Shown here: piece by piece, positions 8,873 to 53,821 of the stretch
How positions within the stretch are numbered: the first letter of the stretch is position 1
How the letters are laid out: each line of letters opens with the position of its first letter
DNA from: a virus
Length of the DNA: 60,790 nt
IMG/VR virus record: IMGVR_UViG_3300005253_000580
Location: 1-60,790 of that record
Reading direction: 5' to 3' (one strand)
The notes under the pieces: generated by a model
Database searches by the model: none
Told to the model about the DNA's origin: nothing
The model's input: the letters and a program-made list of their open reading frames with translations, nothing else
Position numbers and translations under genes: made by a program

Positions 8873-10096
8873 TCATCTCTCCTCGAACAGCACTCGCGGT
8901 AGCCGCTCCCGCATCACTTCCTTGACGTCAATCTTCTGCATCTCAGTCCACACCTCGCCAGCAGCTTCGGTAGTCAGCCTCACATCCTCGGCCATGTGTG
9001 CCAGATTAGGAAGAATGGGGCGGTTCATGAGGATGCCCCGGTCACGCATGCCCACGATAAAATAGGCCCGCTCCTCTGGGCTGTCGAACTGGATGAGTGA
9101 GCGTGGACCATGACCAATAACTCGATAACCATGAATCTGACATAGGCGTAGACCTTCCATGAGATCATTCCCCATCTCCCAAAGATGCCACACTCCCCAC
9201 TGATCCCAGATGTCCAGCACAGCGTCCGCTGCCGCCAGGGATAGGGCGTTGCCGAAGTGGGTGGAGGAGACGAACACCGGATCGTTGCGCTCGAACCACT
9301 CGAAGTATGCCCTGTGTCCCACGATGGCCGAGATAGGCACACCGTTGCCCAGTGCCTTGCCATAGCACACGATGTCGGGCTTGATGCCGTAGACCTCAGA
9401 GGCACCGCCCAGCGCCCAGCGAAAACCGGTCACCACCTCGTCCATGATCAGGAGAGCGCCCGTCTTGTCACAGATGTGGCGCACGTACTCGTAGTAGTTG
9501 GGCTCAGGGTCAACCATCGGGTGCTCCAAGATGATGGCAGCCGGGGCATCATCTGGCTTCACAACCACGGCCAACTCCACGAGCTGCTGCTTGTCATTGA
9601 ACGGAAGGTCCACGACATTCTGCGGGGCTACCCCCCACGCTGGCGGGGTCTTGCCGATGGACCAGTCTGCCCAGCCCGAGTAGCCCGACGAGAGGACACG
9701 CTGTCGCCCCGTTACCGCCCGCGCCAAGCGCACAGCCATGGTGGTAGCGTCCGTGCCGCTGAGCCCGAAGCGTACACCAAGGGTGTCCGGTGACCAACCC
9801 GGAACATGGGTACCAAGGAGGTTGGCCAGCTTCTCGGCGACCCGTGCTTCTAGGACATGAGGGAGGGAGAAGCCAATGCCCTCGAATGCTTGATCGGCGA
9901 GGCGGCAGCAGAAATCTACATTAGCGTAACCAAGCAGGTTCGCACCCAGTCCCGATACCCAGTCCAGGTACCTGTTGCCAGCACGGTCATAAACGTGCGC
10001 TCCCACACCCCACGCCAGTTCCTTGGGCTCAAAGTCCACGCCCCAGAAGACGGGCGATTTCGAGAAGGTGGCGGCGATGGGGAGAGGCTTAGGCAT
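8873..10096 (-). CDS. Class-III (HemL/GSA-aminomutase-like) PLP-dependent aminotransferase
   Basis: GLSGTDATTMAVRLAR, LIMDEVVTGFR, and the PLP-lysine context CYGKALGNG. The ATG at 10096 is preceded by GGAGGA. The ORF is open to 10180. Confidence 0.8.
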   Translation of the reverse strand: MPKPLPIAATFSKSPVFWGVDFEPKELAWGVGAHVYDRAGNRYLDWVSGLGANLLGYANVDFCCRLADQAFEGIGFSLPHVLEARVAEKLANLLGTHVPGWSPDTLGVRFGLSGTDATTMAVRLARAVTGRQRVLSSGYSGWADWSIGKTPPAWGVAPQNVVDLPFNDKQQLVELAVVVKPDDAPAAIILEHPMVDPEPNYYEYVRHICDKTGALLIMDEVVTGFRWALGGASEVYGIKPDIVCYGKALGNGVPISAIVGHRAYFEWFERNDPVFVSSTHFGNALSLAAADAVLDIWDQWGVWHLWEMGNDLMEGLRLCQIHGYRVIGHGPRSLIQFDSPEERAYFIVGMRDRGILMNRPILPNLAHMAEDVRLTTEAAGEVWTEMQKIDVKEVMRERLPRVLFEER

Positions 10097-10233
10097 TAGG
10101 TTCCTCCACCATCTATAACCCAGCCGATCAAGAGCAAAACTAAGCCACATGCAGCCGAACCTATCAACACCACCCACCATATAAGCGAAAGTATAGTGAG
10201 AACGTTGAGGAGAGATTCGAGTAGCACTTCCAT
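10096..10233 (-). CDS. Hypothetical 45-aa hydrophobic (TM) micro-protein
   Basis: Hand translation gives MEVLLESLLNVLTILSLIWWVVLIGSAACGLVLLLIGWVIDGGGT. 1-nt overlaps with both flanking sugar genes. Confidence 0.4.
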   Translation of the reverse strand: MEVLLESLLNVLTILSLIWWVVLIGSAACGLVLLLIGWVIDGGGT

Positions 10234-10895
10234 CACGCCCTCACCACTCCCAGCACACTGAGCCACCCGAAGTCCTCACCCAGCGCTGCATAGACGCCAC
10301 GCACATACTCCATATCCTCCTCAGTATCCACTGACCACTTCAGCGCCGAGAGGTCATCGGCGTGCTGAAGGTGCCCGCTCTTGTAGGTCTTGCGTAGCCA
10401 CGTCGTGACGTGCTCCCGGTCCTTCTGCGCCGTCTTACGGTCTGCTTGGCGTAGTGCCTCGATGGTGAAGGCCTCCACATCGAGGCCATCAGGGTAAGTG
10501 CGGGGGTCCACGTTGTTGAGGTAGGGCGCGTTGAGCGCCGCATGAGCCGCCACTACTTCGTCAATCAATCCTGGGTCAATCAGGGGGCAGTCAGCCGTGA
10601 TCCGCACGATGACGGTAGCTCCCGTTATCGTCGCCACGTCCGCGTAGCGCCCCAGCACATCCCCCTCAAAGTGACCACCGCGTAGAACGCTGATATCATT
10701 GGCTTGGCAGAAGCGCACGATCTGCTGGTCGGCCCCTGAGAACGAGGTGGCCACCACCACTGAACCAACTAACTCCGCCCGCTTCACCCGCTCGTAGACA
10801 CGCTGAAGCATGGGCTTGCCGCAGACATCCTGGAGCACTTTGCCGGGTAGGCGGGACGATCCCATACGGGCTTGGATGATGGCGACTGTGTTCAC
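10233..10895 (-). CDS. Cytidylyltransferase, SpsF/PseF-like (CMP-nonulosonate synthetase family). GTG start.
   Basis: IIQARMGSSRLPGKVL is the N-terminal signature of this family. Confidence 0.8.
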   Translation of the reverse strand: MNTVAIIQARMGSSRLPGKVLQDVCGKPMLQRVYERVKRAELVGSVVVATSFSGADQQIVRFCQANDISVLRGGHFEGDVLGRYADVATITGATVIVRITADCPLIDPGLIDEVVAAHAALNAPYLNNVDPRTYPDGLDVEAFTIEALRQADRKTAQKDREHVTTWLRKTYKSGHLQHADDLSALKWSVDTEEDMEYVRGVYAALGEDFGWLSVLGVVRA

Positions 10896-17502: not shown

Positions 17503-17652
17503 ATGGATAGCCATTCTTTCGTCAAAGCCATAGTGCTGCTGACAGCAACCATGAGAGAAGGAGTTGAGGTGATAACAGCCTTTGTAAGTGCGTGGAGGCA
17601 AGCCTTCCCTCAACGGGCTATGTGGGGTTGTGGTCAACCGGAGGAGGAGTAG
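17503..17652 (+). CDS. Hypothetical 49-aa protein
   Basis: GAGGAGGAG RBS. Ends in the conserved GGAGGAGTAGCCATG junction. Confidence 0.35.
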   Translation: MDSHSFVKAIVLLTATMREGVEVITAFVSAWRQAFPQRAMWGCGQPEEE

Positions 17653-17654
17653 CC

Positions 17655-17861
17655 ATGCACCATCCAGGCGATTGCCCCATCTGTGGCCTCCTCTGCCGAC
17701 TCCGTAGGGACGGCACCGTGGGGCGGCACTACCCAGCAAGAGGGCGTTGGCGTATGACGGTAAGAGACTGGACCCCGTGCGTGGGCGAGGGCCGCATACC
17801 TGTGCAACATGACGGCAGCTCCACCGTCGCCAGGGCTAGTCACCTATTGCAGGGGGGGTAG
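17655..17861 (+). CDS. Small CxxC protein, paralog 1 of 21093..21317
   Basis: MHHPGDCPICGLLCRLRRDGTVGRHYPA is identical to the paralog. The first 83 nt are identical at DNA level. Confidence 0.55.
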   Translation: MHHPGDCPICGLLCRLRRDGTVGRHYPARGRWRMTVRDWTPCVGEGRIPVQHDGSSTVARASHLLQGG

Positions 17862-19930: not shown

Positions 19931-20746
19931 ATGGGTATCTACTACAAGGGCACTCAGTTGGATGGCTTTGATTGGCATACAGGCCGCACGATCAACTACC
20001 GCACGGCGCTGGGCTCCAAGGCTATCCACCCCAGACCAAACCCTGCGGCTGACTTGTGCTCTGACGGCGTTCTCCACGCATCGCCAACCCCCGAAGGGGT
20101 GTTCATCGGCTCTCGTATCCCCTTGGCCCTCTTCCGCGTAGAGGGTACGCCCGTAGTCGAGGACACGGAGAAGGCGGGGTTTGTCGAGTTAACCGTCATC
20201 GAGGAACTGGACCCCGCCAAGACGTTTCGCTGGAACTACGCAGGGGCAGCAAGCCCAGTCAATCCACTACTCCTAACCCCTCCAGCCATAGACGGTGAGA
20301 TCATGGCATTGGTACGGACATGGGCCAGCGTCGGGGCCAGCGTCGGGGCCAGCGTCTGGGCCAGCGTCTGGGACAGCGTCGGGGACAGCGTCAGGGCCAG
20401 CGTCGGGGCCAGCGTCGGGGCCAGCGTCTGGGTCAGCGTCGGGGACAGCGTCGGGGCCAGCGTCAGGGCCAGCGTCTGGGCCAGCGTCAGGGCCAGCGTC
20501 TGGGACAGCGTCAGGGACAGCGTCTGGGTCAGCGTCAGGGCCAGCGTCTGGGACAGCGTCGGGGCCAGCGTCGGGGCTTACATCGGATCGCTGTTCGTGG
20601 CTGTCGTGCCCGACTGGGATACCAACTACCCATACCAATCCGCCGTTGATCTGTGGCGGAAAGGACTCGTGCTGTCATATGACGGTCGCCTCTATCGCCT
20701 GCACGGCCACCGTGACGCTCGCATCCTGTGGGAAGGGACGGTGTAG
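19931..20746 (+). CDS. Protein with a central 21-unit tetrapeptide repeat [W/G/R]-[A/D/V]-S-V
   Basis: N-terminal globular part (CSDGVLHASPTPEG) and a non-repetitive C-terminus. The other frames through the repeat are low-complexity artefacts. Confidence 0.65.
   Translation: MGIYYKGTQLDGFDWHTGRTINYRTALGSKAIHPRPNPAADLCSDGVLHASPTPEGVFIGSRIPLALFRVEGTPVVEDTEKAGFVELTVIEELDPAKTFRWNYAGAASPVNPLLLTPPAIDGEIMALVRTWASVGASVGASVWASVWDSVGDSVRASVGASVGASVWVSVGDSVGASVRASVWASVRASVWDSVRDSVWVSVRASVWDSVGASVGAYIGSLFVAVVPDWDTNYPYQSAVDLWRKGLVLSYDGRLYRLHGHRDARILWEGTV
20321..20572 (+). repeat. Tandem repeat, 21 x 12 nt, consensus [T/G/A]GGG[C/A/T]CAGCGTC
   Basis: Counted unit by unit. 10 of 12 positions are invariant in all 21 units. 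Confidence 0.95.
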
Positions 20747-20748
20747 CG

Positions 20749-21090
20749 ATGGAATGGACAGAACTAACTAGCCAGCAACGGAGCGGGGCTCTCACGGGCC
20801 TCACCTACAGGATTACCAGGACAACCATCTCACTCAGTCCTGATGCCTGCAACTTTCTGGGGGAACGTGTGCGCATTGTGCAGGACGGCAACCGGATAGG
20901 ATTCCTCCCCGCAGAGGAAGGTGTTGGCCAAAGGATACTTTGGACGGGGGGAACGGCTGCGGGCCAAATCGTAAACCGCCATCGCTCCCCTTTGCGTCAT
21001 CTCCCCAGCGGTGGACCCCTTGCACTCCATCGGGAAGCCACAGAAGGCTACGGCGACGCCCTAGTCGGTGATCTGCCCCTGGAGGTGTAG
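20749..21090 (+). CDS. Hypothetical protein (start at the ATG after the GTGTAGCGATG junction)
   Basis: MEWTELTSQQ.... The ORF track begins at 20728. Confidence 0.5.
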   Translation: MEWTELTSQQRSGALTGLTYRITRTTISLSPDACNFLGERVRIVQDGNRIGFLPAEEGVGQRILWTGGTAAGQIVNRHRSPLRHLPSGGPLALHREATEGYGDALVGDLPLEV

Positions 21091-21092
21091 CG

Positions 21093-21317
21093 ATGCACCA
21101 TCCAGGCGATTGCCCCATCTGTGGCCTCCTCTGCCGACTCCGTAGGGACGGCACCGTGGGGCGGCACTACCCAGCTACGGCGCGATGGCGCTATACACCC
21201 AACGGGGGTATGACCCACGACAGCGACCCGTGCAATGGAGAAGGGCAGAAGCCTACGCCTCACGTCGGCAGTTCAGCCGTCGCCAAGGCTAGCCATCTGT
21301 TACAGGAGACCCCATGA
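21093..21317 (+). CDS. Small CxxC protein, paralog 2 of 17655..17861
   Basis: The first 83 nt are identical to 17655-17737. The C-terminus SSAVAKASHLLQ compares with SSTVARASHLLQ. Confidence 0.55.
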   Translation: MHHPGDCPICGLLCRLRRDGTVGRHYPATARWRYTPNGGMTHDSDPCNGEGQKPTPHVGSSAVAKASHLLQETP

Positions 21318-25232: not shown

Positions 25233-25546
25233 TGGCACGCAAGGATAAAGAGGCGCAGGCTGCCTACATGAGGGAGTATCGCGCAGCTCACAAAGCAGAA
25301 CTGGCTGCCTACCAACAGGCCTATGATGCTGCGCACAAGGAGGAACGTACTGCATGGGAAGCAGAGCACAGGGCAAGGATGGCCAGCTACCGCGCAACTC
25401 ACAAAGAGGAGATAGCTGCGTGGGCGCGAATCTACTATGCAACCCACAAAGAAGAGAGGGCCATCTATAACCTTACTTACAACGCAGCCCACAAAGAGGA
25501 CAGGGCCACCTATGGCCGCGCTTACCGTGAGGCCCACAGAGAATGA
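25229..25546 (+). CDS. Repeat protein (A-x-HKEE-x-A-x-Y heptad-like repeats). Corresponds to the N-terminal part of the HNH gene 40995..41534.
   Basis: AAHKAELAAY, AAHKEERTAW, ATHKEEIAAW, ATHKEERAIY, AAHKEDRATY. Confidence 0.5.
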   Translation: MMARKDKEAQAAYMREYRAAHKAELAAYQQAYDAAHKEERTAWEAEHRARMASYRATHKEEIAAWARIYYATHKEERAIYNLTYNAAHKEDRATYGRAYREAHRE

Positions 25547-26378: not shown

Positions 26379-26596
26379 TGGACATCACGGAGCGGCGCAT
26401 TCGAGTGAGCCGAGACAAAGAACCTCAGATCGGCGTCTATCATAACTGGTGCCGTGAGTGCACTCAATGGTCTATATGGGCGGTTACATTCTATGGCTCC
26501 CCACCAGGACCACGGATAAGATCAGTTTACCACTACTATTGTGACCTCCATCTCCCTGCCAAATATCGGAGGTTGTTGGAGGAACTGGAGCCATGA
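26375..26596 (+). CDS. Hypothetical protein (start at the ATG after GGAGGGAG)
   Basis: MMDITERRIRV.... ATGA overlap with the upstream stop. The ORF track starts at 26213. Confidence 0.45.
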   Translation: MMDITERRIRVSRDKEPQIGVYHNWCRECTQWSIWAVTFYGSPPGPRIRSVYHYYCDLHLPAKYRRLLEELEP

Positions 26597-31181: not shown

Positions 31182-31323
31182 AGGAGGTGTAGCCATGGGC
31201 ACGACCAGCACTCCAGCCACCTCCTTGGCTAGAGTTTCGCAACTAGCTACTTGTGCCGTGAGTGTGCTCATTGGTCTACATGGGTGGTTACATTCTATTA
31301 TTCAGAAAGGAGGTGATGCCAAT

Positions 31324-31825
31324 GCCTACGGAGATTAGTTGGACAGACGTGCTGGGACTCCCTGACTACCAGGTCTCCAGTGGCGGCCATATCCGGCGAT
31401 CTACATCAGGTAAGTCCACACGGGTAGGTAGAATCCTCAAGGCCCAGATCGCGAAGGATGGCTACCTGTACTTGATGGTTCGGCGTCACAAGATATGGAT
31501 TCACAGGGCTGTTCTGGAGGCGTTCGTCGGACCGTGCCCAGAGGGGCAAGAGACTCGTCACCTGAATGGCGATCCCACAGATAACTGCGTAGCGAATCTT
31601 GCTTGGGGTAATCGGTTTGAACAACGGGAAGATGCCAGGCGGCACGGCACATTACCAATAGGTGAGAGGTCTTGGTCAGCAAAGCTAACAGAGAAGCAGG
31701 TCAGGGAGATCCGCCGACTCTACGGCTCGCTCTCGCTCAGAACGCTTGGGCAGCAATTCGGCGTCTCACATACTGCAATACGACGCGCTGCACTTGGCTT
31801 GAAATGGAGGCACCTCAATGGGTGA
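31324..31825 (+). CDS. HNH homing endonuclease (type B). The ORF track starts at 31262.
   Basis: DYQVSSGGHIRR...HRAVLEAFVGPCPEGQETRHLNGDPTDNCVANLAWG. RBS AAAGGAGG. Confidence 0.7.
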
Positions 31826-38468: not shown

Positions 38469-40928
38469 CTATGCCGCCTGCAGCGCGGCTACCTCTGCCT
38501 CTAGTTCTTCAATGCGACCAATAAGCTGCTGAATGCCTTTGATTTGTAGACCAGCAAGATGTTCATACTCTACCTTCCAGGGGAGATGATTGCAACCCGG
38601 TAGGCCGGTGGAGCAGTATGGGCAGTCGCGCCCGCCGCCCTGGTCATTGACGATCCAAGGAGCGACCTTGATAGTCTCGTGAGCCAACATCCCTGTGTAC
38701 CGACCCCTATAGTTGCGACCGTAGGGAGATTGATCAGCAGGGTCATCCCACGCAAAGTCTACCACGCGCATCTGCCGGATGAGGCTAAGGGCATCTCTCT
38801 GGGTATCCTCAATGTCCACCTTCAGCCGTGCATCCGACGTTACGTTGATAGAGGCATTGCCGATGAAGAGCTGGGTGCTGGCCGCTCCTTGGGTCGCGTC
38901 GTCGATCTCGTTGTCACCGGAGTCGGCACCAATACGGATGCCTGTCTGCGCCACAATATCAGCCGACGCCACAAAACCTTCATGGGTGATGCTGGCCCAC
39001 GTCGCTACCGCCGTGGCGACTACACCGGAAATATCGAGACGTTTGACATACGCTTGTGCGTCAGCACGCGATGTGAGGACATGCAAAGCTCCTGGTTCGG
39101 TAGCGTGAGTTGCGCCGTACCAAATTATGCGGCTAGCTTTCCCTGCCGCGCCATCTGTCCCGCCACTGAGAATAAATGAACTATTGTCGGTCGCTACGTT
39201 CGCAAAGGAGCCATTCCCAAGTTGTATGTGCTGGTTCGCGGGGATAATTAAGGAGCCTGCTGGGTCTAGCGTCAAGTTGCCAGCAGCTGTACTGATAGTG
39301 GTGGCAGCGTCAAACTCCAAGGTGGACTCAGCTTCCACTGCAAGAACGGCCTCAGCATCGGTGTACTTGGCGTGGTGCTTAGGGTGCACGTGATCCTTGC
39401 GTGCCAAGCTACCTTCAGTGCCGTCAGCAGCCGAGTCAGCATCTATCAGAGGGTCGGAGGTGGCGTCGTCAATGAGAGTTACATCCTCGTCCGGCATCGT
39501 GATCGTGCGAGTGTTCCCTGTCGTGATGCCCGAGAGTTGGAAGTCCAGGATCCTCGTGGCGTCGCCCTCGTCGAAGATTTTGAAGGCGTTGTCGGCGAAA
39601 GTCGTAGCGATGGCTTGGGTAGTAGTCCCCGCGATACTGCTAGGAAACTTACCCCGTAGGTCGGCCTCCTCTACAGAGGTCCACGTTCCACCGCCGCCAG
39701 CACTGTGCTTTAAGAGGAGTCGAGAGATCAGGAACGCGGCGCCCTTGAAGTCGGCAGGGAGGTCGAATACCGTGTAACCCAACACGTCCTGTTCGGCGTC
39801 CGTTTGCTTGTTATAGGACCCCCCGGGAAGGTTCACGAACAACTGAGAGTCTGCAGCAGCTTCCGAGATGGACGCCCAGATGACCAGGTTGAAGTACTTC
39901 CCCGACATGCTCGCGCCGGTGTTGTCGGTCAACAGGTCGGCTAGGTCGGTAATGGTGGTGTATGGCGAGGCGTTGTCGTTGACGACGTGGACCACACTCC
40001 CAGTGCCAGTATTCTTTGCTGGCATCGTATGCGGGTGGAGCTGGAAGATAGTCCCAGAGGTGGTGGCAAAGTCGATCGTATCTGGGCTCCCACCTGTGAT
40101 CGTCAACGTCTGCGAGACACCGGACTTCCAGGTAGCGTGCTGCTCACGAATCCACTCTGTGAAGTGAGAAAGCTGGCCCTGGTTGTCTGCGTCGCTCAGG
40201 TGATCTGTCCACGCGTGGAACTTCAGCGCCCCGTTGGTTTGGACCAGCGCTGCCGTCTGGACGATGACCGTCGCTAGGGGTGCGTGCTCAGCGCTAGGGA
40301 AGGCTGACGTGCTGACGGTCAAGGCCTTGGTGGATTGCAGGATGTAGACGTAGTTCTGCTGTGGCGAGGTGGCGCTCCCGGCAGTCAGCGCGATGGTCGC
40401 GGGTGCTGCCGTAAACGTGGTGAAGCCATCCGAGAACAAGAGCGTGAGGTTGCCGCCACCTTCCTTCTGAACCGAGAAGGTGATGGTGGCACCGTCCGAG
40501 GAGGCACTGGCGTCGATGGTCTCTACGATACCGCCGTTGAGGATGCTTAGATTCGCTTCACCGTTCTTGATGAGGAGGCCATCCACGGTGACACCAGCGT
40601 CAGCGCCCAACTCGCCTATAACATCAAGGCTGAGCAGACCGTTAGAATCGATAGTCGCGACCGTCGCTGAGTCTGAATCCTGGATAATGACTTTTCGAGC
40701 ACCAGCGTTATCGGGCAACCGGATGGTGAAGTCGAGGCCGGCACCTGGGATGAAGAGGGGGCCGGTAGCGTCCGCGGCATCAACGAATTCTGCGGCTCCC
40801 ACCATGAGGTCATAGAGCGCCTTGATAGCATTGATGACGTTCGTGTTGAAGTCGTCGGGACGCACACCGCCGGACGTAACAGGTACGTCATTAGCGGCGT
40901 AGACCACAGGGTCAACGAAATCAATCAT
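38469..40928 (-). CDS. Tail fibre / tailspike with C-terminal intramolecular chaperone (peptidase S74) domain
   Basis: TSDARLKVDIEDTQRDALSLIRQMRVVDFAWDD...GMLAHETIKVAPWIV in the last ~120 aa (about 38469-38837). 819 aa. Confidence 0.75.
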   Translation of the reverse strand: MIDFVDPVVYAANDVPVTSGGVRPDDFNTNVINAIKALYDLMVGAAEFVDAADATGPLFIPGAGLDFTIRLPDNAGARKVIIQDSDSATVATIDSNGLLSLDVIGELGADAGVTVDGLLIKNGEANLSILNGGIVETIDASASSDGATITFSVQKEGGGNLTLLFSDGFTTFTAAPATIALTAGSATSPQQNYVYILQSTKALTVSTSAFPSAEHAPLATVIVQTAALVQTNGALKFHAWTDHLSDADNQGQLSHFTEWIREQHATWKSGVSQTLTITGGSPDTIDFATTSGTIFQLHPHTMPAKNTGTGSVVHVVNDNASPYTTITDLADLLTDNTGASMSGKYFNLVIWASISEAAADSQLFVNLPGGSYNKQTDAEQDVLGYTVFDLPADFKGAAFLISRLLLKHSAGGGGTWTSVEEADLRGKFPSSIAGTTTQAIATTFADNAFKIFDEGDATRILDFQLSGITTGNTRTITMPDEDVTLIDDATSDPLIDADSAADGTEGSLARKDHVHPKHHAKYTDAEAVLAVEAESTLEFDAATTISTAAGNLTLDPAGSLIIPANQHIQLGNGSFANVATDNSSFILSGGTDGAAGKASRIIWYGATHATEPGALHVLTSRADAQAYVKRLDISGVVATAVATWASITHEGFVASADIVAQTGIRIGADSGDNEIDDATQGAASTQLFIGNASINVTSDARLKVDIEDTQRDALSLIRQMRVVDFAWDDPADQSPYGRNYRGRYTGMLAHETIKVAPWIVNDQGGGRDCPYCSTGLPGCNHLPWKVEYEHLAGLQIKGIQQLIGRIEELEAEVAALQAA

Positions 40929-40994: not shown

Positions 40995-41534
40995 TCATAA
41001 TAGAAGCCATAACCTGGCGCTCTTCCTGGAGTTGCAGCTTTTACAAGCCGCCACGATGTTCTCCTTCACGTGGAACCCGTCCTTGCTCAGAGGTAGCACA
41101 TGGTCCATCGTGAGCTTGGCTACCTTCTCTTTGCAGTAGTAGCATCTACCCTTGGCATGATTGAGGATGGCCAGCCACTCAGCGGAGGTGAGTGGGGCTG
41201 TGGTGCTGCGCTTCTGTGCTCTGCGTCTGGCATCTTTGGCTGCCACCACCGCCCTGCCCTTCTCGGTGCGGCGGTAATCTCGCGTTTGGAGAGCTATCCA
41301 TTCTCTGTGGGCTTTTAGGTAGGCGGCCCTCTCCTCCTTGTGCGCTTCGCCATAGGTGCGGCCCCAAGCGGCCCTCTCCTCCTTGTGCGCTTCTCGGTAG
41401 GTGCGGCCGTAGGCGTCCATCTTGGCCTTGTGCGTCTCGTAGTAGGTGCGGCCGTAGGCGGCCAACTCATTCCTGTGCGCTTCTCGGTAAGCGCGGCCCC
41501 AGGCAGCCTTCCTTGCCCTGTCCTTGTATGGCAT
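40995..41534 (-). CDS. HNH endonuclease (type C) with N-terminal AHKEE repeats. Intact (fused) paralog of 25229..25845.
   Basis: EAHKEERAAW repeats plus CYYCKEKVAKLTMDHVLPLSKDGFHVKENIVAACKSCNSRK. The ATG at 41534 is behind GGAGG. Confidence 0.7.
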   Translation of the reverse strand: MPYKDRARKAAWGRAYREAHRNELAAYGRTYYETHKAKMDAYGRTYREAHKEERAAWGRTYGEAHKEERAAYLKAHREWIALQTRDYRRTEKGRAVVAAKDARRRAQKRSTTAPLTSAEWLAILNHAKGRCYYCKEKVAKLTMDHVLPLSKDGFHVKENIVAACKSCNSRKSARLWLLL

Positions 41535-53036: not shown

Positions 53037-53821
53037 CTGGTGCTATTCAGCCCAATCAAATGAATCCATCCCGGTGCAGCGGCTAGACCAGTCGTGAAGG
53101 CGATGTGCGTGCTGCCAGCCGTAGTGAAGTCAGCCCCCGCCGAGCTTGAGGTGATCGTCACCGTCGCGGCAGTCGAGACAACAGATATCCACTTCACCAC
53201 ACCAGCAACCGGGGCATTAAGATCCACCGTCAGCGCAGTGGCTGCATAGATGGTGCTAATGCCATAGGCCGTCATTTCCGTCGTGCCGCCGCTCGTTATT
53301 GCCTCGACATACTGCTGATAGCCAGTGTTAGCAAGGATGCGTTGGCCTGAGATGGCACCACCAGCACCACCAGTGGTAGTGACGCTATCAAAGGTTCCTG
53401 CACCCGTGGAGGTCACCGCCGCGCCAGTGATAGTGCCCGTGGAGGTGACGGCATTGAATGTGCCGAGCCCCGTGGAAGTCACCGCGTTGAACGTGCCCGT
53501 TCCGGTGCTGGTGACGGCATCGAATTTAGCCGCGACCCCCGACCCTGTGGATGTGTAGCTGGCGCCAGTGCTTACGAAGCCGCCAACAGCATCAACTTCG
53601 CCCGTGGTGTTGATGTCTCCACCAATAAACCCACCTGCCGTACTGAGGTCGATAGTACCGCCGGTGGTAATGAGTTCTGAACCACCTACCTTGAGTACAC
53701 CACCCGACTCGATGTCGATCTCTCCGCCCGATTCAACGTCAGCAGAACCAGAGGAGGCGATGACGAAGCGGTCGCCACCTCTCTCCCGATAGGTACCCGG
53801 CTGGTACGTATTGTCTGCCAT
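52994..53821 (-). CDS. Gly/Ser/Thr-rich repeat protein in the head module (decoration/fibre candidate)
   Basis: Five 11-aa repeats: FDAVTSTGTGT, FNAVTSTGLGT, FNAVTSTGTIT, GAAVTSTGAGT, FDSVTTTGGAG (about 53365-53530). Lies two genes downstream of the MCP. Confidence 0.6.
   Translation of the reverse strand: MADNTYQPGTYRERGGDRFVIASSGSADVESGGEIDIESGGVLKVGGSELITTGGTIDLSTAGGFIGGDINTTGEVDAVGGFVSTGASYTSTGSGVAAKFDAVTSTGTGTFNAVTSTGLGTFNAVTSTGTITGAAVTSTGAGTFDSVTTTGGAGGAISGQRILANTGYQQYVEAITSGGTTEMTAYGISTIYAATALTVDLNAPVAGVVKWISVVSTAATVTITSSSAGADFTTAGSTHIAFTTGLAAAPGWIHLIGLNSTRWTVLAQSTGTNVI

Follow-up and report, generated by a model that had tools for sequence, protein, structure and literature searches.

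The window encodes an early phage protein with an in-frame tetrapeptide array

We analyzed a stretch of viral DNA of 60,790 nucleotides (nt) (IMG/VR record IMGVR_UViG_3300005253_000580; hereafter the window), a tailed-phage contig from the LCGC14 marine-sediment metagenome with portal, large terminase (TerL), major capsid protein, and tape-measure protein genes, and we focus on one gene of its + strand, at 19931..20746, that contains a long array of 12-nt repeats. The gene lies inside a + strand block (~17.6-32.7 kb) with genes for helix-turn-helix/sigma-like regulators, HNH nucleases, an IstB-like loader, and DUF5131, and RusA is annotated in two other assemblies of the same phage (L111 and L112); this block is the early/replication module. 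The coding sequence, defined by the list of open reading frames (ORFs) and by full-length homologues, specifies 271 amino acids in three parts. Residues 1-130 (19931..20320) form a beta-rich N-domain related to DUF7666, as judged by AlphaFold2 (AF2) modeling, Pfam matches of homologues, Foldseek, and hhalign; residues 131-214 (20321..20572) are the array; and residues 215-271 (20573..20743) form a C-domain (AYIGSLF...YPYQSAVDLW..GLV.SYDG..YRLHG), which AF2 and conservation outline as short helices followed by three strands.

The array consists of 21 head-to-tail units, [T/G/A]GGG[C/A/T]CAGCGTC, in frame 0 of the ORF, and encodes [W/G/R][A/D/V]SV. Unit positions 2-4 and 6-12, the adenine at position 7 among them, are constant in 21/21 units (10/12 positions invariant). 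Position 1 (T8/G8/A5) gives TGG, GGG, or AGG (Trp, Gly, or Arg), and position 5 (C13/A6/T2) gives GCC, GAC, or GTC (Ala, Asp, or Val). An earlier note on this DNA had described 21 units with ten invariant positions and two variable sites, all non-synonymous, that spell [WGR][ADV]SV, and every one of these factual claims proved correct when we re-parsed the sequence. The array was also delimited by Tandem Repeats Finder (period 12, 21.3 copies, score 372) and by a pattern search in which a two-unit pattern with up to 3 mismatches matched 20 times in the window, overlapping and always within the array, compared with 0.00 matches expected from shuffles. Seven of the nine possible unit types are present, in an order indistinguishable from random and with no excess of duplicated multi-unit words; no three-unit word occurs twice, and no exact repeat inside the array is longer than 39 nt. 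A degenerate 22nd unit (GGGGCTTACATC, encoding GAYI; 20573..20584, + strand, found by sequence parsing) opens the conserved AYIG motif of the C-domain. The coding strand of the array carries 21 GGG runs at an exact 12-nt spacing. We note that two non-synonymous variable sites in a single array are hardly remarkable statistically, as, by site count, a pair of sites chosen at random would miss third codon positions in 28/66 (0.42) of cases; the pattern gains its significance from the recurrence of the same two sites across the family.

Units are homogenized within arrays at all but two nucleotide positions

The earlier note had pointed to protein databases as the place to look for a tetrapeptide-repeat family, and an exhaustive phmmer search uncovered one, with 1170 representatives of 50% clusters; full-length homologues number more than 3500, at 41-58% identity. 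The common plan is a beta-rich N-domain, a [W/G/R][A/D]S[V/I] array, and a C-domain of the form AYIG...YP[YF]Q..VDLW..GLVPS[YF]DG..WRLH. K6, G12, C43, and H49 of the N-domain are invariant (motif C-S-x-G-V-L-H-A-S); Y217, G219, W229, Y233, P234, Q236, W242, G245, and H258 of the C-domain are nearly so, as is the AYIG motif across the family. For the 118 homologues whose array was detectable, unit numbers run from 3 to 30 (median 14), residue 1 is W in 43%, G in 28%, and R in 25% of units, residue 2 is A in 47% and D in 43%, and the backbone residues 3 and 4 are S in 95% and V in 91%. The window protein itself has no Pfam match at E <= 1 and only a weak match in PHROGs, over the repeat region and to a family of unknown function; the N-domains of the family match no annotated PHROG, and megablast and tblastn searches of 50,697 phage records found nothing. 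When the C-domain alignment was used as the query for related loci, it retrieved 6 viral loci only, and the same search of GTDB genomes gave one false positive (a YjbQ-like gene of Marinicella), which does not establish that the family is absent from those genomes.

For codon-level comparison, 45 viral loci were retrieved by a degenerate pattern of the C-domain motif, which makes the sample blind to the repeat DNA, and diversity was computed for the 24 arrays among them with at least 8 units. Between lineages, the synonymous codons of the backbone vary (Ser TCG/AGC/TCA/TCC/TCT, Val GTC/GTG/GTT, Asp GAT/GAC, Ala GCT/GCC), and inside each array they are almost invariant. Diversity at the synonymous unit positions 6, 9, and 12 is 0.08, 0.04, and 0.02 within arrays and 0.49, 0.75, and 0.47 between lineage consensuses; the corresponding values are 0.61 and 0.42 at position 1 and 0.47 and 0.46 at position 5. 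Diversity at positions 1 and 5 is thus 6 to 25 times that at synonymous positions. Judged from these alignments, concerted evolution of an in-frame minisatellite, which the earlier note had suspected from the window array, is demonstrated in this family by synonymous sites that differ by 0.02-0.08 within arrays and by 0.47-0.75 between lineages, and variation is maintained at two residues per unit in essentially every family array. The note's second suspicion, selection at the two sites, agrees with the high within-array diversity there and with the use of the same alphabet across diverged lineages, from which we infer the selection itself.

Further, the codons used at position 1 are restricted. 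Gly is GGG in 456/461 cases, and 57/62 arrays with at least 3 Arg units use one Arg codon only (AGG in 48, CGG in 7, another in 2), so that one of the four bases is missing from position 1 of each array, even though Arg could be written as either AGG or CGG. Unit composition is also non-random: R tends to be followed by D and G by A (chi-square 23, p = 1e-5). Array units are ~30% basic (R/K) and ~49% acidic (D/E) on average, and the mean net charge of the arrays is -3.8; neither higher-order periodicity nor charge balance was detected in the arrays. One full-length homologue, P0114 (L107 10001-10933), lies in a 3.05-Mb cellular contig among MtrH/MTTB methyltransferase, corrinoid-protein, and chaperonin genes, in a neighborhood without phage genes. 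The 21 units of its array are degenerate and differ from one another in the ordinary way, at synonymous and non-synonymous sites alike, which implies that the uniformity of the phage arrays is not a coding constraint.

Arrays gain and lose whole units between close relatives

The earlier note had predicted that the array would be prone to expansion and contraction, and this is what we observed, as whole-unit indels separate proteins with 100% identical flanking domains. In one 90% cluster, N- and C-domains are identical (130/130 and 60/60 residues) and the arrays have 9, 15, 16, or 21 units; in another, flanking domains are again identical and the arrays have 16, 17, or 20 units. Within a cluster, the terminal units are the same in all members, and the differences are indels of blocks of whole units in the interior of the array. 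The flanks of two loci, L062 and L063, show 100% identity across 570 nt and 99.6% across the following 2.5 kb; the arrays there have 14 and 18 reshuffled units, respectively, with three-unit blocks in common. A significant excess of duplicated multi-unit words was found in 20-30% of arrays.

The window array itself was compared with two further assemblies of the same phage, one from JGI/NCBI (LCGC14 assembly; L111) and one held at ENA (k127 assembly of SRR1555748; L112). Both have 21 units in the same order as the window. L112 equals the window over 20,816 nt, and L111 differs at a single nucleotide, position 20433 (+ strand), which is position 5 of unit 10; there the window and L112 read T (Val168) and L111 reads C (Ala168). 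The chance that the sole difference would hit one of the 42 hypervariable nucleotides is ~42/20816, or 0.002; the difference is either a real population polymorphism or a path choice of the assembler within the repeat. Further, in at least 4 pairs of related loci, separate samples had yielded assemblies with the same array, of up to 19 units.

The array is predicted to be helical and the N-domain to resemble DUF7666 and RIIB

An AF2 model of the window protein built with 116 homologues has a predicted local distance difference test score (pLDDT) of 88 and a predicted template modeling score (pTM) of 0.81, with pLDDT >92 in the N-domain and 90-96 in the C-domain. A lead-in helix begins at about residue 122, N-terminal to the array, and the array is modeled as helices 122-138, 141-158, 160-193, and 196-220. 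In the model of a homologue with 6 units (pLDDT 90.9), helix 127-144, a low-confidence loop (145-150), and helix 151-166 form a helix-loop-helix with the array across the turn. We conclude that the array is most likely an extendable alpha-helical hairpin or bundle, in which each extra unit would lengthen the hairpin and shift the register of the exposed W, R, and D side chains. The beta-solenoid that the earlier note had guessed at is at odds with both models, in which AF2 gives alpha-helices; more generally, the pentapeptide-repeat/beta-solenoid class was ruled out by the 4-residue period, the lack of a Pfam match, and the helical prediction. No transmembrane segment is predicted in the window protein, and no solved structure resembles it. 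An Arr (rifampin ADP-ribosyltransferase) fold was also rejected: a weak Foldseek match to 2hw2 (E = 0.11) was not repeated with a second model, hhalign against Arr-2 gave a probability of 0.2%, and a profile search of PDB sequences was empty.

The N-domain was placed by way of its relatives. Pfam PF24703 (DUF7666) is matched by 33/116 full-length homologues (best E 4e-9), and in Foldseek searches of BFVD the N-domain matched DUF7666 proteins and several predicted structures annotated as RIIB (2.8-3.3 Å root-mean-square deviation over 101-108 residues), the RIIB-annotated ones with E values of 7e-4 to 6e-3 and a probability of 1.0. The top BFVD match, gp39 of the cultured Propionibacterium phage Doucette, was recovered by hhalign with a probability of 95%. 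In this protein (L105 27150-27779), a helical stretch comes after the domain and holds nothing more regular than degenerate quasi-repeats (ARGFARGFARDVARF...); the gene stands just upstream of RecE/RecT. When the N-domain was aligned with residues 214-307 of T4 rIIB, a region that includes the invariant C-x-x-G-L-H motif, hhalign reported E = 3.4e-4 and a probability of 38%, and with a small rIIB alignment E = 3e-3 and a probability of 10%. T4-type RIIB is, like the array protein, a non-essential early phage protein; it differs in that the domain is C-terminal, the tetrapeptide array is absent, and T4 rIIB has no Pfam DUF7666 match.

The same array is found in unrelated phage proteins

Many phmmer matches cover the array alone, at 70-78% identity, in proteins of 370-570 amino acids that have a short N-domain, 30-69 units, and a C-terminal DUF6745 (Pfam PF20530) and are encoded in phage or prophage early-gene contexts. 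These uncharacterized DUF6745 proteins, with arrays of the form [W/G/R/E][A/D][S/K]V, have the same tetrapeptide array as the window protein; their flanking domains are unrelated to those of the window protein, and their arrays are usually longer, reaching 59 and 69 units. One of them (L109) has 38 units with a 12-nt backbone, NGGGNCAGCGTC, identical to that of the window, and varies only at position 1 (T14/A13/G11) and position 5 (C26/A12), with the adenine at position 7 again invariant. Another (L110) has 69 units of [G/R/W/E][D/A]KV and varies only at positions 1, 2, and 5. The exact 12-nt unit of the window occurs in 57 IMG/VR loci, in which most arrays with complete downstream sequence are of the DUF6745 type. 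The shared backbone could reflect convergence through GC-rich codon choice or exchange through the array. In other members, a different N-domain is joined to the array and the AYIG C-domain, and two loci (L015 and L056; IMG/VR 3300025012_000185 and 3300025030_000200) contain tandem small ORFs that consist almost entirely of an xxSV/xxRV array and end in ...SLEEES, a third architecture with the same repeat module. A literature search on DUF7666, DUF6745, and array peptide strings gave nothing relevant.

Other features of the window and of related loci

A gene of ~106 amino acids (MKKMEIYRQGDVL...GEVTGHAH...), without a Pfam match, adjoins the array gene in 10/45 loci (L001 and nine others) and is absent from the window. 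In the window, the array gene lies in a 3.4-kb segment flanked by a pair of paralogous small Cys-rich ORFs (~17655..17861 and 21093..21317), both of which begin with MHHPGDCPICGLLCRLRRDGTVGRHYPA; their 5' ends are marked by the copies of a 123-nt direct repeat (17630-17752 and 21068-21190; 89% identity, with ~85 nt perfectly identical), which may be a site of recombination or a module boundary. A second direct repeat, of 50 nt and 88% identity (26445-26494 and 31249-31298), overlaps with its second copy the start of an HNH_3/NUMOD4 homing-endonuclease-like gene at 31262..31825. Other tandem repeats of coding size lie at 41321-41508 (45 nt x 4.2), 25439-25525 (45 nt x 1.9), and 53436-53525 (33 nt x 2.7), the first of them just upstream of a tail-fiber gene (38469..40928, - strand) that carries an S74 chaperone domain. 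In the structural/packaging arm, a class-III aminotransferase gene (8873-10180, - strand) stands beside a cytidylyltransferase-like gene (10233-10895, - strand), a pair that suggests a sugar-nucleotide or modification pathway.

Discussion

We consider it probable that the array is an in-frame minisatellite in concerted evolution, with selected diversity at two sites, and that it forms the helical array of a tunable host-interaction protein. The evolutionary part of this mechanism is well supported. Frequent unequal recombination, slippage, or conversion keeps units near-identical within an array, and the same homogenizing process inserts and deletes units as wholes, with the reading frame always preserved. 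Polymorphism persists at two nucleotides of the unit in essentially all arrays: base 1 of an NGG codon, for W, G, or R, and base 2 of a GNY codon, for A or D and sometimes V, G, or N. Because neutral differences would be erased as fast as synonymous ones, the persistence of these two requires selection or site-specific hypermutation, and we favor selection for a mixed W/G/R and A/D composition. The unit types would then be old alleles; the single Arg codon per array indicates that they spread by duplication and conversion and not by random base replacement. Further, since Trp has only TGG, joint homogenization would force Gly to GGG and Arg to AGG or CGG, and this would explain why the alphabet consists of one-step neighbors of a single backbone. 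In the protein, a helical hairpin or bundle would project from the rIIB-like (DUF7666-type) N-domain and the small C-domain, and its length and exposed W/R/D pattern would change with each unit gained, lost, or reshuffled.

The closest described analogue is gp54 of mycobacteriophage Tweety, together with Che8 gp57 and PMC gp51, to which the window protein is not homologous. Like the window protein, gp54 is an early-region protein with unique N- and C-domains around a long in-frame 12-bp array, and in both arrays each unit has two constant and two variable residues and third codon positions are invariant within the array. When the two were re-analyzed side by side, gp54 showed 48 units of AA[G/W/Q][S/Y], compared with [W/G/R][A/D]SV in the window; in both, one variable residue toggles through an NGG codon (G/W in gp54). 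Copy number differs between near-identical relatives in the gp54 type as in the present family. The hosts of the gp54 phages are actinobacteria, whereas the window phage comes from marine sediment. The array pattern of gp54 was read by its authors as "selection for variation" (PMC2884959), and Tweety mutants with more or fewer repeats retune counter-defense against the prophage systems of Phrann and MichelleMyBell (PMC9262239 and PMC8549241). T4 rIIB, for its part, is classically known as the factor that counters RexAB, and it also triggers gasdermin/CARD systems of bacteria (PMC10312443). With the retuning of gp54 by repeat number and the action of rIIB against RexAB as the precedents, the most likely function of the window protein, by analogy, would be that of a rapidly tunable host-interaction protein, probably an anti-defense protein. 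As anatomy and dynamics match gp54 and the flanking domains are not homologous, we conclude that the present protein is an independent or very distant variant of this kind of device.

A looser parallel exists outside phages. The repeats of transcription activator-like (TAL) effectors are independently folded helical hairpins of 34 amino acids, each of which reads one DNA base. As an analogy only, both TAL-effector and window repeats are near-identical in DNA, vary in two residues per repeat, and recombine readily; they differ in that the 4-amino-acid unit of the window array cannot be a folding unit and nothing indicates nucleic-acid binding by the window protein.

Several observations weigh against the explanation we prefer. 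The flanking domains have no detectable homology to gp54: tblastn against the 50,697 phage records was empty, and hhalign of the N-domain with that of gp54 gave a probability of 1%. The link to RIIB is weak by sequence and is suggested mainly by the predicted-structure matches. The pLDDT of the modeled array is low (64-80), and it is uncertain where the helices break. No conserved gene neighborhood, and with it no functional clue, was found around the array genes of the 45 loci. All of the comparative arrays come from short-read metagenome assemblies. Last, unit order shows no positive autocorrelation between neighbors; slippage alone would create it, and selection against runs or frequent short conversion tracts would thus be needed.

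The dynamics could be as we propose and the role of the protein another one, such as action at the membrane or in lysis timing, as in the "membrane integrity" interpretation classically given to rII, or a function in structure or regulation, in place of the neutralization of a host defense protein. We regard this as rather unlikely. Such a role is in line with the resemblance of the N-domain to the C-terminal domain of RIIB and with weak glycine-zipper Pfam matches over the small-xxx-small array, and helices rich in W and R often bind membrane interfaces. It is opposed by the lack of a predicted transmembrane segment, by the excess of acidic over basic residues in the units and the negative mean net charge, and by the present view of rIIB itself as an anti-defense factor (PMC10312443).

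That the array is a neutral low-complexity linker, a flexible spacer in which the W/G/R and A/D differences are tolerated noise, appears improbable to us. The wide range of copy number, from 3 to 30 units in the family and up to 59 and 69 in the DUF6745 type, would mean that length is loosely constrained; AF2 confidence is lower in the array than in its flanks; and the arrays lack detectable charge balance or periodic order, all of which a spacer would accommodate. However, homogenization should equalize diversity across a neutral unit, and positions 1 and 5 exceed the synonymous positions by the 6- to 25-fold margin given above; full divergence of the backbone codons between lineages has left the restricted alphabet the same, and it is used in an unrelated protein family as well; and the R-D and G-A pairing is non-random.

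Directed diversification, in which a system like a diversity-generating retroelement (DGR), with its reverse transcriptase, or some other mutator with site specificity alters the two positions on either side of GGG, had also been raised in the earlier note; we hold it to be very unlikely. The variation is indeed limited to two nucleotides per unit directly flanking GGG, unit order looks random without neighbor correlation, and one hypervariable site accounts for the only mismatch between two assemblies across 20.8 kb. Localized hypervariation in a phage protein is what the window array shares with DGR variable regions, and the tandem array of bbp36 VR2 in Bordetella phages BPP-1/BMP-1 varies in copy number between isolates (cited in PMC2884959). 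However, Pfam and PHROGs scans of ORFs turned up no reverse transcriptase, many window ORFs lying outside these scans, and no second copy or template of the unit exists elsewhere in the window. Adenine-directed mutagenesis is incompatible with the adenine at position 7, invariant in the 21 window units and in the 38 units of L109, and random replacement would mix AGG and CGG in place of the three bases per array and the single Arg codon of 57/62 arrays. Close relatives, moreover, differ mostly by whole-unit indels. Finally, that the array is an assembly artefact, a collapsed or mis-joined short-read repeat, we consider extremely improbable. The 252-nt array does exceed a typical Illumina read and many related arrays stand at the ends of fetched loci (which storage may have cut, so that these are not necessarily contig ends), but two separate assemblies agree on 21 units and their order with one base between them, no three-unit word recurs and the longest exact repeat of 39 nt is shorter than a common assembler k, and identical arrays of up to 19 units were obtained from different samples in the locus pairs described above.

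Beyond the tunable host-interaction protein that we propose, a wider idea is offered tentatively, and we think it rather unlikely. In the [W/G/R][A/D]xV array, unrelated early proteins of phages (DUF7666/rIIB-like, DUF6745, and small array-only proteins, with gp54 by analogy) might have in common a portable "tuning cassette" that is driven by recombination. With two polymorphic residues per unit, held in balance across lineages, the helices would present a combinatorial surface; this surface and the length of the hairpin would jointly set which host or prophage immunity protein is engaged, and the shared DNA backbone would act as a homology linker for swapping flanking effector domains.

Within its family, the array is a clean natural example of concerted evolution that proceeds alongside long-term polymorphism within the repeat units, and it provides a testable handle on DUF7666, on DUF6745, and on the still unexplained mechanism of rIIB. 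If the analogy with gp54 is true, tuning by repeats would be no mycobacteriophage curiosity and would be a widespread strategy, represented by more than 1100 protein clusters at 50% identity and in at least 2 unrelated domain contexts. A host-interaction protein would in this way be kept permanently evolvable, as a minisatellite would change its length and surface far faster than point mutation could, and the gene would never be inactivated.

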